DNA of 64,000 nt. Source: Candidatus Helarchaeota archaeon. GTDB taxonomy: Archaea > Asgardarchaeota > Lokiarchaeia > Helarchaeales > RDOG01. The number at the start of each line of letters is the position of its first letter. Within the stretch, counting starts at the first letter, position 1. Position numbers and translations under genes: made by a program. The notes below the pieces were generated by a model. That model saw nothing but the letters and a program-made list of their open reading frames with translations, was not told where the DNA came from and did no database searches. This document shows positions 41,607 through 51,400 of the stretch, in pieces. The stretch spans positions 96,001-160,000 of the forward strand of contig JAHPZH010000009.1 of NCBI GenBank assembly GCA_019058315.1. Direction: 5' to 3'.

Positions 41607-42419
41607 TTAGGGTAGGTATTGAAATAATTCTTTCGATTTTTCTAATGTAATCTCAACACATTTTATAATTTCGTCTTTAGTAAAAATACCTTCTCTACCT
41701 TTTTGTATGCTACAAATATTTCCAGATTCATCTACTGTAATTGTAATGCGTGCATCCATTATGCGATCCTCTTGTTCATTTGGATCAACCAGCAATTTAT
41801 CTCCTATCTTTGCTATTGTAACTGAAACTGCTTTATTGGAAAATGGGAGGGATAACCAATCTGCTTTTTTGTATTGTTCACCTAAAACTTCCACTTTATT
41901 ATCAACAATCTCAGTCCTTGGCATTTTTGCAGAAAGTAAAGCTGCCACTCCTGCTAATGTTCCCGCATCAAACATATTTCCATCATAAGATAAAACATAT
42001 AAATCAATAAAAATGATAAAAACTTGTTCGCCAGGAATTAAGCATAATTTAGAATAATCTACTATTTCTGAATGACGAATTCCTCTGTCAACTACACGTG
42101 CAACCTCAACAGAATCTTCATTTGGTGGTCCTGGTTCGAATATAGGGGATGCAAGAGCTGTAAGCTCGGCATTAACAGTGATTACTCCCCTATCAGGAGT
42201 ATCTGGAAATGGAGGTCCAAGTGAAATCTTTACACCTGCAATAATATCTGTATTTCCAATTTTAACACGTGCTGACCCCTCAGCTTTTAGTATTACATCT
42301 GTCTCTACAGATATTTTTCGATAATCTAAAAAATTCCTTCCGTCTATTCTCTGATCCTTTTTTACTAGAGAATTTATATGAGATTTTTCAATTTCAGAAA
42401 TAATTTTAAAAGATTCCAT
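41607..42419 (-). CDS. rrp42: Exosome complex subunit Rrp42
   Basis: RIDGR, AEGSARVKIG, PFPDTP, FEPGPP, ARVVDRGIR, DGNMFD. Confidence 0.96.
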   Translation of the reverse strand: MESFKIISEIEKSHINSLVKKDQRIDGRNFLDYRKISVETDVILKAEGSARVKIGNTDIIAGVKISLGPPFPDTPDRGVITVNAELTALASPIFEPGPPNEDSVEVARVVDRGIRHSEIVDYSKLCLIPGEQVFIIFIDLYVLSYDGNMFDAGTLAGVAALLSAKMPRTEIVDNKVEVLGEQYKKADWLSLPFSNKAVSVTIAKIGDKLLVDPNEQEDRIMDARITITVDESGNICSIQKGREGIFTKDEIIKCVEITLEKSKELFQYLP

Positions 42420-43233
42420 TATATATCCTCCTCCTTTGATATTTCAGTTTCAATTTCTTTATCAAGTTGACTATATTTTCCCTTTATCGTCTGAATTTGA
42501 ATTTCATTTAATTTTTCAATTCCTTTTTCAGCAATATCCAAGGCTTTACGCATTTCATCAAATGTTATTTGACCATCAAATTGCAAAAGTGTATATGATT
42601 TAGATCGTGGCATCATTGCAATTGGTAAATCTCCCAAACCTTCTTTATCTTCAACATCCGATAAATCTAGAACTAATGTGGGTGGATCAGGATTTGCAAT
42701 TTTACCTACTGCTACACCACAAACAAGGTCGCGTAATGATATTCCAGCATCCGCTAGAGCTAAAGAAGCCGCAGTAACCGCAGCACAACGTGTACCACCA
42801 TCTGCACAAAGGACTTGGATAAAAACATCTATTATAGTTTTTGGATAATATTCAAGAAATATTGATGATTCCAAAGCTTGTCGTAAAATTAGCGAAAGTT
42901 CGACTTCCCTTCTAGATGGGGCAGGAGATTTTCTCTCATCTACTTTATTCCAAATTATTCACTCGGTATAATTTAAGCGAACGTAGCCATGCGATAAAGT
43001 ACTCGCAAAACTGCCGCATCTTGACGGGCTAAATGACGAGGGTGAACTTCACGTGGTCCATAAACTGCGACCAAAATTTTATTCTTTCCCATATTTATTA
43101 AAGCAGAACCATCTGCTTTTGTTAATAATCCCATCTCCATTGAGACTGGTCTTAATTCATCATATTTCCTATTATCTGTTCTTATTCCATCCCTAATTAA
43201 CCAATCAGCTGGGACTTGTTTAAAAAGTGCCAT
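42419..43233 (-). CDS. rrp41: Exosome complex subunit Rrp41, two exons (43233-42977 and 42944-42419), about 260 aa after splicing
   Basis: Exon 1 ADGSA...VYGPRE...YRMATF; exon 2 VDERKSPAPSRREVELS...ADGGTRCA...ED..G.GD; removing 42945-42976 joins them in frame. Confidence 0.92.
42945..42976 (-). other. 32-nt bulge-helix-bulge intron in rrp41 mRNA
   Basis: Exon stem CTAC/GTAG, central helix GTTC/GAAT, bulges GC|T and AA|A, intron stem TAAATTAT/ATAATTTG. Confidence 0.88.
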
Positions 43234-43288
43234 AATTATCACCTTTTTATATATTTTTTTAATTCATATCTAAATTTCGATTTTCAAT

Positions 43289-43993
43289 TTACTTCTTCTT
43301 TTTTTCATTCTCTATCAAAATTTTTACTCTATCTGTGAGGCCAGAAGTATGTGCCTCTCGTTCAATTTTCTTAATAATTTTAATCAATAATTGTTCATCT
43401 TCTAAGTTTTTTGTAGATATCCAAACCAAACCATTTTGTCCAACTACGATTTGGCTTTTTGTTGCTTCTTTAATTAAATTTATCATAGAACCCTTTCTTC
43501 CTATCAATCTAGGTATTTTCGCAGAAGCAATTTTTATTACTTTTCCTCCGCGCAATTTACCATATCCTTTACCTCTTATTGATAGAACAGGATCTCTTGT
43601 TCTGTTAAATGCTATTATCTCCCCCACAATAATTTGTCCGATATCAAAATAATTTTTGATATTATCTTTTAAAGGATTAAATGCTCGGTCTATTACATTT
43701 GTAACATGTAAGGAAGCTGTATATGGAGAATCAATATCAACTTTCCAGCTAACGATGGATGTATTTATAATTTTTCCTATAACAACATCACCGACCTTAG
43801 GTACATAAGGTCCACTGAAGGGAACTACATATACATTATTATTTCCTCTAATCTCTGAAAACCCAATAATAGATGCATAAAGTTTATCCTCTTCCTTGTA
43901 TGTTCCAAATCCTGCTCTATACTTAGAACCTTCTACAATTAATTCGCCTGGCACTACAATACGATGCCGTTCAAAACTATCTCCATTTGACAA
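43289..43993 (-). CDS. rrp4: Exosome RNA-binding subunit Rrp4
   Basis: IVVPGE, YVPKVGDVVIG (S1), IPRLIGRKGSM (KH), EAHTSGLTDRV. Confidence 0.96.
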   Translation of the reverse strand: MSNGDSFERHRIVVPGELIVEGSKYRAGFGTYKEEDKLYASIIGFSEIRGNNNVYVVPFSGPYVPKVGDVVIGKIINTSIVSWKVDIDSPYTASLHVTNVIDRAFNPLKDNIKNYFDIGQIIVGEIIAFNRTRDPVLSIRGKGYGKLRGGKVIKIASAKIPRLIGRKGSMINLIKEATKSQIVVGQNGLVWISTKNLEDEQLLIKIIKKIEREAHTSGLTDRVKILIENEKKKK

Positions 43994-44021: not shown

Positions 44022-44756
44022 TTAAAAGAGTGTTTCCTTTAATTTCTTAATATCATGTTTACCTTTTGTTAAATTTTTAAGTTGGTCATTTAATTCAGCA
44101 TGGACACCAACAGGAAGGTCAATTAATGCTATCCATGATCCATCAGATTGCCATTCATCTTTAGAAATTGTACCATACTTTGAAACAATGCCATAAGCTT
44201 TTCCTGTATATTGAGCTGGAATTTTTACAGCAAGAGTAATTCGTTCCATTTTAATAGGGATAATTTCTGCTAATTTCTTCACAATTTTCTTTGCTTGCTC
44301 AACAATTTCCTCATTGGAATCTATAGATATTTTTGCATCTTCCATTGCACGTTCAATGCGAGCTGGTGGATGTGGAAGCCCAGTTTTGGGATTTACACAA
44401 TTACGATTGATAAAATAAATAATTTTTTTTCTAATTTTCTCCGTAAATTCTTTTCTCATTTCAGCTGTAATGTGCAGTTCTCCATTTTTTAAAATCTCTT
44501 CTGAAATTTCAAAAATGTCATCAGTTTCAAATATTTTCTGAAATAACTCCGAATCTGTCAATTTTTCACCGCGTAAAGCGTCTGAAAAAATGTAATATCC
44601 AATTAAAATATCACGTATTTCAATATCCTTTCCTTCTTTGAATTGCCAAGCTAGCTTCGGATCTACTAAGATCTCAAAATGATGTCCCATACTATCATAA
44701 CGAACTATGGTTGCTTTTCCAAGATCTAGTCTTTTCTGTCCCCTTATAGAAACCAT
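44022..44756 (-). CDS. Ribosome maturation factor SBDS/Sdo1
   Basis: HFEILVDP, IFSDA, NPKTGLPHPPARIERAM. Confidence 0.94.
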   Translation of the reverse strand: MVSIRGQKRLDLGKATIVRYDSMGHHFEILVDPKLAWQFKEGKDIEIRDILIGYYIFSDALRGEKLTDSELFQKIFETDDIFEISEEILKNGELHITAEMRKEFTEKIRKKIIYFINRNCVNPKTGLPHPPARIERAMEDAKISIDSNEEIVEQAKKIVKKLAEIIPIKMERITLAVKIPAQYTGKAYGIVSKYGTISKDEWQSDGSWIALIDLPVGVHAELNDQLKNLTKGKHDIKKLKETLF

Positions 44757-44773
44757 ATTTATCTGATCTACTT

Positions 44774-45487
44774 CTAAATCCTTTGTATATATTTATCCAA
44801 TTCCTCGGTAGCTAATCTTTCGAATTCCTTAGTTTCAGTACGTGCTATTGCCACTTCTACCTTAGTTGAATCAAGTTCAGTTTCGATTACTTGTTTTAAT
44901 GCTTTAAGAGCTAACTCAATTGCTTGATCTAATGTCATTTCAGGCTTATATTCTTTTTCGAGTTCTTCTTGTACTGTCTGAGCACCAGAGCCAATAGCAT
45001 TGGCACGATAGCCCCAAAATGCCCCTGATGGATCAGTTAAAAATAATTGAGGCCCTTTTTCATCAATTCCAGCAATTAATAGACTTACACCGAAAGGGCG
45101 AACTCCTGCATGTTGCGTATATAATTGTTTTAGATCACATATCTTTTTTGTTAGCATTTGAATATCAATTGACTCATCATAAGTGAGTTTATTTATTTGA
45201 CATTGAATTCTAGCATGATCTACTAGAACTCTTGCATCAGCTGTCAAACCAGCTATAGCACAGCCAACATGATTATCAATTTTAAAAATCTTTTCTACAC
45301 TTTCAGGTTCCTGAAGTGCAAGAATTCTTTTTTCTACTGTACAAACAACACCTTCAGAACATAAAATGCCAATTGCAGTAGTACCCTTTCTAACTGCTTC
45401 CATGGCATATTCTACTTGAAAGAGTCTTCCATCTGGACTAAAGATCGTGATTGCACGGTCATAGCCCATACCTGGTGGCGCGAACAT
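44774..45487 (-). CDS. psmA: Proteasome subunit alpha
   Basis: GYDRAITIFSPDGRLFQVEYA, RPFGVSLL; start placed at ATG 45487. Confidence 0.97.
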   Translation of the reverse strand: MFAPPGMGYDRAITIFSPDGRLFQVEYAMEAVRKGTTAIGILCSEGVVCTVEKRILALQEPESVEKIFKIDNHVGCAIAGLTADARVLVDHARIQCQINKLTYDESIDIQMLTKKICDLKQLYTQHAGVRPFGVSLLIAGIDEKGPQLFLTDPSGAFWGYRANAIGSGAQTVQEELEKEYKPEMTLDQAIELALKALKQVIETELDSTKVEVAIARTETKEFERLATEELDKYIQRI

Positions 45488-45852
45488 AATGCATAAACAC
45501 CTACCTTTTCTTAAATTAACCAATTCTTTATTTCAAAGTTAAATATATTTTCATAAGAAATTATAGTTTATTTTTTTTACTCTTTTGTATAAATTTATTT
45601 CTTTTATTTACACAAGATTTTCTTATACAAAAATGTTTTTTTCCTTTATTTATATTCATAATTGTTATTTTAAAAAAAAATAAATTTTTTTTCCTTAAAT
45701 TTTTTGGTGAATTTATTAAAAAAGAATTAAAATTTCTTTAATTAAATATAACCGAACTAAATTTCAACATAGAACCGTTTAAAAAACACATATACTTAAA
45801 ATTCTAACGATTTTTTAAATAAATTTTGATTTAAAACCTTCTATCATAGATT

Positions 45853-50306: not shown

Positions 50307-51400
50307 ATGGTAAAGACTGGAATAATATATCATGAAGATTATTTAAAACATGATACTGGAGATCATGTTGAAAATAAAAAAAGATTGATTGCCACTTTGG
50401 ATTTATTTAATGAATACAAAATTTTTGAGCATCCTAATATCATTAAGATTTCCCCAAATCCAGCATCTATTAAGGAAATTCAAAGAGTTCATAAAGCATT
50501 TTATATAGAAAAAGTCCGGGAAAAATGTTTAAGTGGTGGGGGCTGGCTTGATGCTGATACAATTGTCTCTCCAGATAGCTACAATGTTGCATTATTAGCT
50601 GCTGGAGGAGCAATACAAGCAGGTGAGATGGCTGTAAAAGGTAAAATTGACAATGCTTTTTGTTTAATACGTCCTCCAGGACATCATGCCGGACCAGGGG
50701 TTGCTAGAGGATTTTGTGTATTTAATAATATTGCCATTGTTGCAAAATCTTTAATTGCGAGGTTTGAAGAGGTCAATAAAGTCTTAATATTTGACCACGA
50801 TGCACATTAAAAAAGAAATTTTCTTTTTTAAGCATATACGCAGGTAATGGAACCTCGCAAATTCTATATAACGATCCAAATGTGCTATTATTTGATTTTC
50901 ACCAACATCCGCGAACACTCTATCCTGGAACAGGTTATATAGATGAAATAGGTGAGGAAGAAGGAAAGGGATATAATATAAATTTACCTATGGTTCCCCG
51001 TGCTGGTGATGCTCAATATCTAGAAGTTATTGATGAATTATTCATTCCAATTATTAATCAATTTAAACCTGATATTGTTCTAGTTTCAGCAGGATTTGAT
51101 ACTCATTTTTCTGATCCCATTACACAACTCAATATAACAATTCAAGGATATGGAGAAATCGTTAAAAAAATAAAAAAAGAGGCAAAAAAAGTCTGTGCTG
51201 GGAAAATTATAATTATGCTTGAGGGTGGATATGATTTAAAAGCACTATCTCAGGGAATTCTAACTGAAATATCTGTACTTGGAGATTTAGGTATTGAATT
51301 TATAGAAAATCCTCCTAAAATTGAAGAAGCTATAGTAGATTACAATAGAAAAATGATAGATAAATTAAAAGAAGTTTTAGGTGCTTATTGGAAATTTTAA
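50307..51400 (+). CDS. Histone deacetylase family (HDAC/AcuC) protein, two exons (50307-50805 and 50838-51400), about 353 aa after splicing
   Basis: HVE...RL, RPPGHHA, GFCVFNN, spliced DHDAHAGNGT, YPGTG, SAGFDTH, LEGGY. Confidence 0.92.
50806..50837 (+). other. 32-nt bulge-helix-bulge intron in HDAC mRNA
   Basis: Central helix ATGC/GCAT, bulges AC|A and AT|A, intron stem TTAAAAAAGA/TCTTTTTTAA, exon pairing CG/CG plus ACC/GGT. Confidence 0.88.

Follow-up and report, generated by a model that had tools for sequence, protein, structure and literature searches.

A probable bulge-helix-bulge intron in the rrp41 pre-mRNA of a Helarchaeales-like Asgard archaeon

The Candidatus Helarchaeota archaeon assembly GCA_019058315.1 represents a Helarchaeales-like Asgard archaeon (5.8 Mb, 30% G+C), and the stretch of it analysed here, which we refer to as the window, comprises 64,000 nucleotides (nt) of contig JAHPZH010000009.1 (positions 96,001 to 160,000). 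On the minus strand of the window lies the single-copy gene rrp41, encoding the catalytic subunit of the exosome, and its coding sequence is interrupted by 32 nt (42945-42976) that very probably constitute a genuine bulge-helix-bulge (BHB) pre-mRNA intron. Read literally, the gene consists of two minus-strand open reading frames (ORFs), 43242-42973 and 42958-42419. Exon 1 (42977-43233) runs from an ATG at 43233 to the GC of codon Ala-86/89, with an alternative GTG start at 43242 in the list of ORFs, and supplies the RNase PH domain with its N-terminal half. Exon 2 (42419-42944, including the stop codon at 42421-42419) encodes the rest of this domain together with RNase_PH_C, and carries the segments of the phosphate site (PAPSRRE) and of the active site (ADGG). 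The Pfam profile RNase_PH is divided between them, positions 1-60 of 130 being matched in exon 1 (E 1.5e-12) and 64-129 of 130 in exon 2, and exon 2 also matches 3l7z_B, a solved chain of exosome complex exonuclease 1 (Rrp41), from residue 85 onwards (E 5e-47).

The BHB motif has been described previously (PMC5829648). At this locus the sense strand from 42986 to 42940 reads CTAC GTTC GC^T TAAATTAT ACCGAGTGA ATAATTTG GAAT AA^A GTAG, where the carets mark predicted cuts between 42977 and 42976 and between 42945 and 42944 that would release the intron TTAAATTATACCGAGTGAATAATTTGGAATAA. The elements follow one another in the order outer helix, 4-base-pair (bp) helix, 5' bulge, inner hairpin, 4-bp partner, 3' bulge and outer partner. 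The outer helix (h) is formed by two exonic strands, CUAC (42983-42986) and GUAG (42940-42943), joined by four Watson-Crick pairs, while the central helix (H) pairs an exonic 5' strand, GUUC (42979-42982), with an intronic 3' strand, GAAU (42947-42950), as G.U, U-A, U-A and C-G in the window allele. Two bulges of 3 nt, GC^U (42976-42978) and AA^A (42944-42946), lie on opposite strands and would each be cut after the second base. The inner hairpin (h', 42951-42975) has arms of 8 bp, TAAATTAT (42975-42968) and ATAATTTG (42958-42951), which include one U.G pair and enclose a 9-nt loop, ACCGAGTGA (42967-42959). This geometry, with CTAC/GTAG, GTTC/GAAT, two 3-nt bulges and an 8-bp stem, was set out in the original prediction, and our own reading matches it to the base. 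Introns of tRNAs share this layout, the central helix taking its 5' strand from the exon and its 3' strand from the intron, and BHB motifs are canonically cut where the cuts are predicted here, after the second bulge base on either side.

Removal of 42976-42945 in silico leaves 266 and 526 nt, which together form a frame of 792 nt without an internal stop that specifies an Rrp41 of 260-263 amino acids (aa), in agreement with the earlier statement that cuts after the second bulge base take out exactly 32 nt and restore the conserved Rrp41 frame. The spliced junction translates as ...YRMATF-A-VDERKSPAPSRREVELS, and the predicted products by which it could be recognised are an RNA in which ACGTTCGC is joined directly to AGTAGATGAG and the junction-spanning peptide MATFAVDER. 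The further proposal that unspliced RNA stops at a TAA one base inside the intron holds for the window allele (GCT TAA) but does not extend to a conserved trait, since only five of the nine alleles compared below have an immediate in-frame stop and the other four end 10-12 codons later.

Intron-bearing relatives were found through a protein search with the 86-aa exon-1 product, limited to short proteins, which returned Rrp41 N-terminal fragments of 86-104 aa and 83-88% identity from other assemblies. In nine further contigs, which stem from at least seven samples (Logan, JGI and ENA), the identical codon is interrupted by an insert of 28 nt (three contigs), 29 nt (two), 31 nt (one) or 32 nt (three), never a multiple of three, and rrp41 is called as two genes in every related contig that reaches exon 2. 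Two of the contigs, L137 and L138 (48 kb and 157 kb), come from a single JGI sample (3300033141) and hold different rrp41 alleles, so that at least two species of the clade coexist there; their 29-nt introns differ by wobble-compatible changes.

Nine distinct alleles, the window allele included, were aligned with MAFFT (alignment A1), which placed all gaps in the loop. The outer helix is invariant, with CUAC/GUAG kept and 100% paired in all nine, and the central helix is fully paired in each of its variants, GUUC/GAAU, GUUC/GAAC, AUUC/GAAU and AUUU/GAAU, which exchange pair 5-40 between GU, AU and GC and pair 8-37 between CG and UG while leaving 100% of cells paired. The bulges are always 3 nt long, being GC^A or GC^U on the 5' side and AA^A, AU^A or AG^A on the 3' side. 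The inner helix has diverse sequences (UAAAUUAU, UAAGUUAU, UGAGCUAU, CGCAAUCU and CGGCAAA, for example), yet at least seven of its first eight positions are paired in every allele, and seven of the eight pairs have undergone compensatory double changes. The motif therefore has the strict hBHBh' form, with an invariant outer helix of 4 bp and an inner helix of 8 bp of which 7 pairs covary. Over the whole alignment, 97.2% of cells are paired in the BHB structure compared with 83.0% in shuffles (none of 500 shuffles reaches the observed value), 22 cells are changed on both sides where 7.4 would be expected, and sliding the partner strand by 1-3 columns lowers pairing to 29-41%. RNAalifold likewise recovers the outer and inner helices with seven covarying pairs.

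More distant orthologues lack the insert. Each of 29 species representatives of the same class gives one uninterrupted high-scoring segment pair across the junction, and the spliced product aligns with them without an indel, the nearest reading YRMSTFAVDERKSPAPSRREVELS against YRMATFAVDERKSPAPSRREVELS; the empty site in this nearest intronless relative is TTT GCA GTG. Three relatives had been flagged as having a TAA inside; two of these loci (L024 and L026) were retrieved, and no internal stop is present in their tblastn alignments. Among 96 further diverse archaeal loci, 94 are uninterrupted and two are cut by contig ends, making the spliced Rrp41 colinear and gap-free with 123 uninterrupted orthologues (29 + 94). 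A scan of metagenomes with the exon-2 peptide yielded only relatives of at most 59% identity, all uninterrupted, and a fragment of a Helarchaeales metagenome-assembled genome with 73% identity (L139) is also without the insert. The expectation that relatives would lack it was thus borne out for the 123 more distant orthologues but not for the closest ones, which carry it. In a maximum-likelihood tree the nine intron-bearing alleles form one side of a branch (support 100/99) that adjoins the nearest intronless relative, a pattern for which one gain suffices. From these comparisons the insert in rrp41 is a clade character and not unique to the genome of the window.

The neighbourhood of the gene is that of an exosome operon. 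Upstream of rrp41 on the same strand lie, in the order of transcription, the proteasome alpha gene psmA (44774-45523), SBDS (44022-44756) and rrp4 (43289-43993), and downstream lies rrp42 (41607-42419, minus strand; Pfam RNase_PH and RNase_PH_C), whose ATG overlaps the rrp41 stop as TAATG (42417-42421). Pfam matches bear out the order psmA-SBDS-rrp4-rrp41-rrp42 that had been read from the sequence, and the longer related contigs share the order SBDS-rrp4-rrp41-rrp42-L37ae.

How readily such a motif could arise by chance was assessed with the site fixed by the protein alignment, the question being whether an arbitrary 32-mer placed there would make the motif. Among 300,000 shuffled introns, a fraction of approximately 9e-4 formed a central helix with at least four inner pairs, and 3e-5 formed one with at least eight; for random 32-mers from the genome these fractions were approximately 5e-4 and 1e-5. 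Several observations nevertheless weigh against a BHB intron at this locus. For the 47-nt motif of the window allele the BHB fold has an energy of -4.2 kcal/mol against an optimum of -6.2, the central helix has a pairing probability of approximately 2%, and the fold of 66 nt has a z score of only -0.5. A competing hairpin, CCGAGU/AUUUGG (42959-42967 with 42951-42956), beats the BHB by 2 kcal/mol, and in the closely related strain of run X2 a change of G to A at 42964 (sense strand) would turn a G.U pair of the competitor into A-U and so strengthen it. This competitor is predicted in the window allele only; the minimum-energy folds of the other alleles keep the BHB register, in which the central helix is either formed or replaced by a 7x7 interior loop, as it is in five of the nine other contigs. 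RNAalifold does not predict the central 4-bp helix from A1, and the exons contribute half of the central helix and all of the outer helix, parts that are codon-constrained and hence unable to covary freely. A genome-wide scan for BHB motifs that join ORFs gave 87 matches under a strict rule of 4/4/4 bp compared with 95 in a parallel-pairing control, 485 against 425 under relaxed rules and 48 against 28 when a long inner helix was required; motif scans of this kind cannot count introns, because their background comes from adjacent-gene junctions. Finally, the genome is a metagenome bin with an estimated contamination of 6.6%.

Since the gene read literally is broken by a stop, and the BHB is not the minimum-energy fold in the window allele, rrp41 might be regarded as a pseudogene inactivated by a 32-nt insertion whose BHB-like fold is accidental. 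We consider this very unlikely, because the insert has persisted at one site over a synonymous divergence (dS) of 0.7-1.5 with helices that covary, the exons have no other lesion, and an insert of the same type is found in the gene for EF-2. Against the window allele, the eight intron-bearing orthologues have ratios of non-synonymous to synonymous substitution (dN/dS) of 0.08-0.19 overall, 0.10-0.18 for exon 1 and 0.06-0.23 for exon 2, and the ORFs spliced in silico are complete in all nine alleles (260-270 aa). In the X2 strain the substitutions are 9 synonymous to 10 mostly conservative replacements, giving a dN/dS of approximately 0.33 and an excess of synonymous changes whose probability under neutrality is 0.016. 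The gene is moreover the only rrp41 of the assembly, the sole other match to the spliced protein being an RNase PH paralogue on contig C3. The original prediction of a working gene, drawn from the intact operon and the lack of other lesions, is supported by purifying selection on both exons, and no second intact rrp41 turned up, which in combination with only unspliced transcripts it had named as a refutation. The paralogue itself (C3:499601-500308, minus strand), with 29% identity to Rrp41, makes a third gene of the RNase PH family and is located outside the exosome operon; most relatives have similar second matches. As the genome is a metagenome bin, the insert might also be put down to faulty assembly or sequencing, or to a mobile repeat captured in a single bin; the probability of this is close to nil. 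The insert recurs in independent contigs from other studies, among them the nine related ones described above. The X2 contig, from a different study and 98% identical, spans 42624-43242 with 12 substitutions and no gap, and its intron differs only at 42964, a loop position, so that no pair is touched; the X7 contig covers 42700-43005 without a gap, and the X6 contig is identical across 42965-43187. In the contigs of four runs no sequence joined the exons directly, so that the DNA without the insert that the original prediction had named as refuting it did not turn up there. A short blastn search with the intron gave no further copy in the genome and hence no repeat family, and over 42300-43400 Rfam had no match at E <= 1.

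Gene callers annotate two ORFs in the related contigs and a TTG is present at 42874, as would suit a split gene, the two halves being made as separate proteins that come together in a functional Rrp41 with no RNA splicing involved. Such an arrangement is very improbable: the first start codon of exon 2 lies 23 codons past the junction, and its use would delete VDERKSPAPSRREVELS, the most conserved segment; there would be no reason to conserve a 4-bp helix and two 3-nt bulges with compensatory changes; and intron lengths that always restore one frame would be left unexplained. The gap might instead be crossed by the ribosome, through hopping of the type known from gene 60 of phage T4 or through frameshifting. 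The window allele, with a stop directly after the last exon-1 codon followed by a hairpin, is loosely like the take-off site of gene 60. The take-off codon here would be GCU, however, and no landing codon (GCN) occurs in or just after the 32 nt; four alleles have no immediate stop, gap lengths range between 28 and 32 nt with the BHB register unchanged, and the conserved features are those that the splicing endonuclease EndA reads and not those of a bypass element, so that we regard translational bypass as extremely unlikely. A self-splicing intron of group I or group II was rejected, as the insert is 32 nt long compared with a ribozyme core of hundreds of nt, and the Rfam search found neither.

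A BHB intron in the rrp41 pre-mRNA would be removed by the enzymes that process tRNA introns, and the genome encodes candidates for both steps. PF01974, the EndA family, matches twice: a protein of 184 aa resembles the catalytic alpha subunit 3p1z_B (4e-45) and, judged by eye, keeps the Tyr/His/Lys motif residues, and a second, divergent protein of 201 aa is without the His. The two subunit genes are located at C12:5149-5700 and C1:331414-332016. The EndA of this genome is thus, by its predicted subunits, an (alpha-beta)2 enzyme. RtcB is intact (PF01139, 582 bits; open frame of 489 aa, which includes C5:272272-273576). The (alpha-beta)2 arrangement has been reported for Asgard and TACK archaea (PMC5829648), and it is tied to cbf5 pre-mRNA splicing in the title of Yoshinari et al. 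2006, as cited there. In the present genome cbf5 is uninterrupted, with the TruB_N match at 1059-1400 of the window (plus strand; C10:97059-97400) lying within a 364-aa open frame without a stop, and an orthologous cbf5 intron was rejected as an identity for the insert, which lies in rrp41.

From the pathway of tRNA and cbf5 introns we infer that EndA cleaves and RtcB ligates the rrp41 RNA. The psmA-SBDS-rrp4-rrp41-rrp42 transcript would fold locally into the hBHBh' motif, a heterotetrameric (alpha-beta)2 EndA would cut after the second base of each 3-nt bulge, and RtcB would join the exons and probably circularise the 32-nt intron, the repaired frame then yielding Rrp41 of 260-263 aa. Unspliced RNA would yield only a fragment of 86-89 aa without the phosphate-binding and catalytic residues, so that synthesis of Rrp41 would trivially depend on splicing, and it would probably translate the overlapping rrp42 poorly.

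The intron in rrp41 does not seem to stand alone, as at least three more protein genes of the genome are predicted to carry inserts of the same geometry (31-33 nt). The gene for EF-2 is interrupted by 31 nt between DTPGH and VDL (C6:81229-81259, equivalent to L130:2730-2760, minus strand); the GTP_EFTU profile is matched from 2 to 79 and then from 82 to 151 across its exons, and the minimum-energy fold is a perfect hBHBh' motif. A paralogue of EF-2 with 34% identity lies at C5:121873-124065. In the window itself, a gene of the histone-deacetylase family has an insert of 32 nt between ...FDHDA-H and AGNGTS (50806-50837, plus strand), across which the Hist_deacetyl profile is matched from 1 to 151 and from 154 to 295; its central helix is AUGC/GCAU, its bulges are AC^A and AU^A, and an 11-bp inner helix of A and U is combined with a weak outer helix of 2 bp (HBh' type). 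The third is a regulator with HTH_3 and CBS domains, in which 33 nt with a central helix CUAG/CUAG (C5:499169-499201, equivalent to L133:269-301, plus strand) separate exons whose junction restores ...SLIAR-I-ETG, the match to HTH_3 breaking off precisely where the exon does, at profile position 28 out of 55. Two matches of the genome-wide scan were rejected as introns: C5:382681-382708, which lies between mcrG and a separate gene, and C11:748086-748117, which is without domain support. The former adjoins a complete gene for the gamma subunit of methyl-coenzyme M reductase (MCR) at C5:381788-382678 (plus strand; L135:88-978; PF02240, 4e-91), presumably that of the alkane-oxidising MCR described for Helarchaeota.

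Introns are also frequent among the tRNA genes of the genome, 18 of the 42 detected by ARAGORN having predicted introns of 11 to 763 nt; many of these genes cluster near 627-632 kb of one contig, and ARAGORN found no tRNA in the window. The set looks incomplete, and multiple introns therefore probably conceal many tRNA genes. Abundant introns are a known feature of tRNA genes in Asgard archaea (PMC11291895; bioRxiv 10.64898/2026.10.13.758758).

What the rrp41 intron does for its host is most simply answered by regarding it as a heritable, tolerated insertion. No dedicated regulator is needed, because unrelated genes of the genome carry similar introns, and those in the EF-2, deacetylase and HTH_3-CBS genes make a role specific to the exosome unlikely. 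The original prediction had suggested that splicing gates the synthesis of the exosome and may couple RNA decay to EndA/RtcB activity. The alternative is that the introns of rrp41, EF-2, the deacetylase and the regulator, and possibly more, are kept by selection and tie the synthesis of RNA-decay and translation factors to the capacity of EndA and RtcB, a proposal that we think unlikely.

Among known systems, the cbf5 pre-mRNA intron was reportedly described by Watanabe and colleagues in 2002, and the BHB introns of archaeal tRNAs are said to have been surveyed by Marck and Grosjean in 2003. The cbf5 gene of Crenarchaeota has been the only reported case of a BHB intron in an archaeal coding sequence (PMC7714728, PMC2738675). 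Like that intron (Yokobori et al. 2009, PMC2738675), the rrp41 intron is short, lies in the coding sequence of an RNA-metabolism gene and restores the frame on removal; both occur in hosts with an (alpha-beta)2 EndA and have a patchy, clade-wise distribution implying gain or loss. They differ in host gene and in phylum, the present one being Asgard (Helarchaeales-like) and not Thermoproteota, and in their evidence, splicing having been shown experimentally for cbf5 whereas the rrp41 intron is supported by comparative covariation; a further difference is that such introns appear to be present in at least three other protein genes of the present genome. With archaeal tRNA introns it shares the hBHBh' motif, the cut positions, the size class and presumably EndA and RtcB, but its substrate is an mRNA without a tRNA body, the exonic helix strands are codon-constrained, and its splicing has to contend with translation.

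The only other mRNA case reported, the BHB element of HVO_1309 in Haloferax volcanii, lies in the 5' untranslated region (PMC7714728). It too is an mRNA substrate of the tRNA splicing endonuclease, as is predicted for rrp41, but being in an untranslated leader it does not interrupt the reading frame. The splicing endonuclease of Haloferax volcanii is of the alpha'2 type. Outside the archaea, the splicing of HAC1 and XBP1 mRNAs is similar in that protein enzymes splice an mRNA and change its frame, with RtcB-type ligation in metazoa (PMC8718801 for the role of RtcB). Cut by Ire1 and ligated by RtcB or Trl1, these mRNAs are the model for the idea that splicing gates expression in a regulatory manner; unlike the enzyme proposed for rrp41, however, Ire1 reads two stem-loops and not a BHB, and regulation has been demonstrated there. 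No report of BHB introns in Asgard protein genes was found in the literature searched, many subscription journals being outside its coverage. On the comparative evidence rrp41 is thus a second well-supported candidate host of BHB introns among protein genes, after cbf5.

The significance of this host lies in its product: rrp41 provides the principal machine of 3'-5' RNA decay with its catalytic subunit, here in an archaeon related to the ancestor of eukaryotes. The comparative support is unusually good, since nine distinct alleles share a single site, the helices covary and both exons are under purifying selection, and the inserts in EF-2 and two other genes suggest that this lineage may routinely splice pre-mRNAs by means of enzymes. 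In practical terms, it is worth noting that gene callers split such genes into two fragments. The order of splicing relative to coupled transcription and translation in an archaeon, and the mode of intron gain, become testable. Should the introns prove to be kept by selection, they would amount to a splicing checkpoint on mRNAs, competing with coupled translation, in the archaeal lineage closest to eukaryotes.

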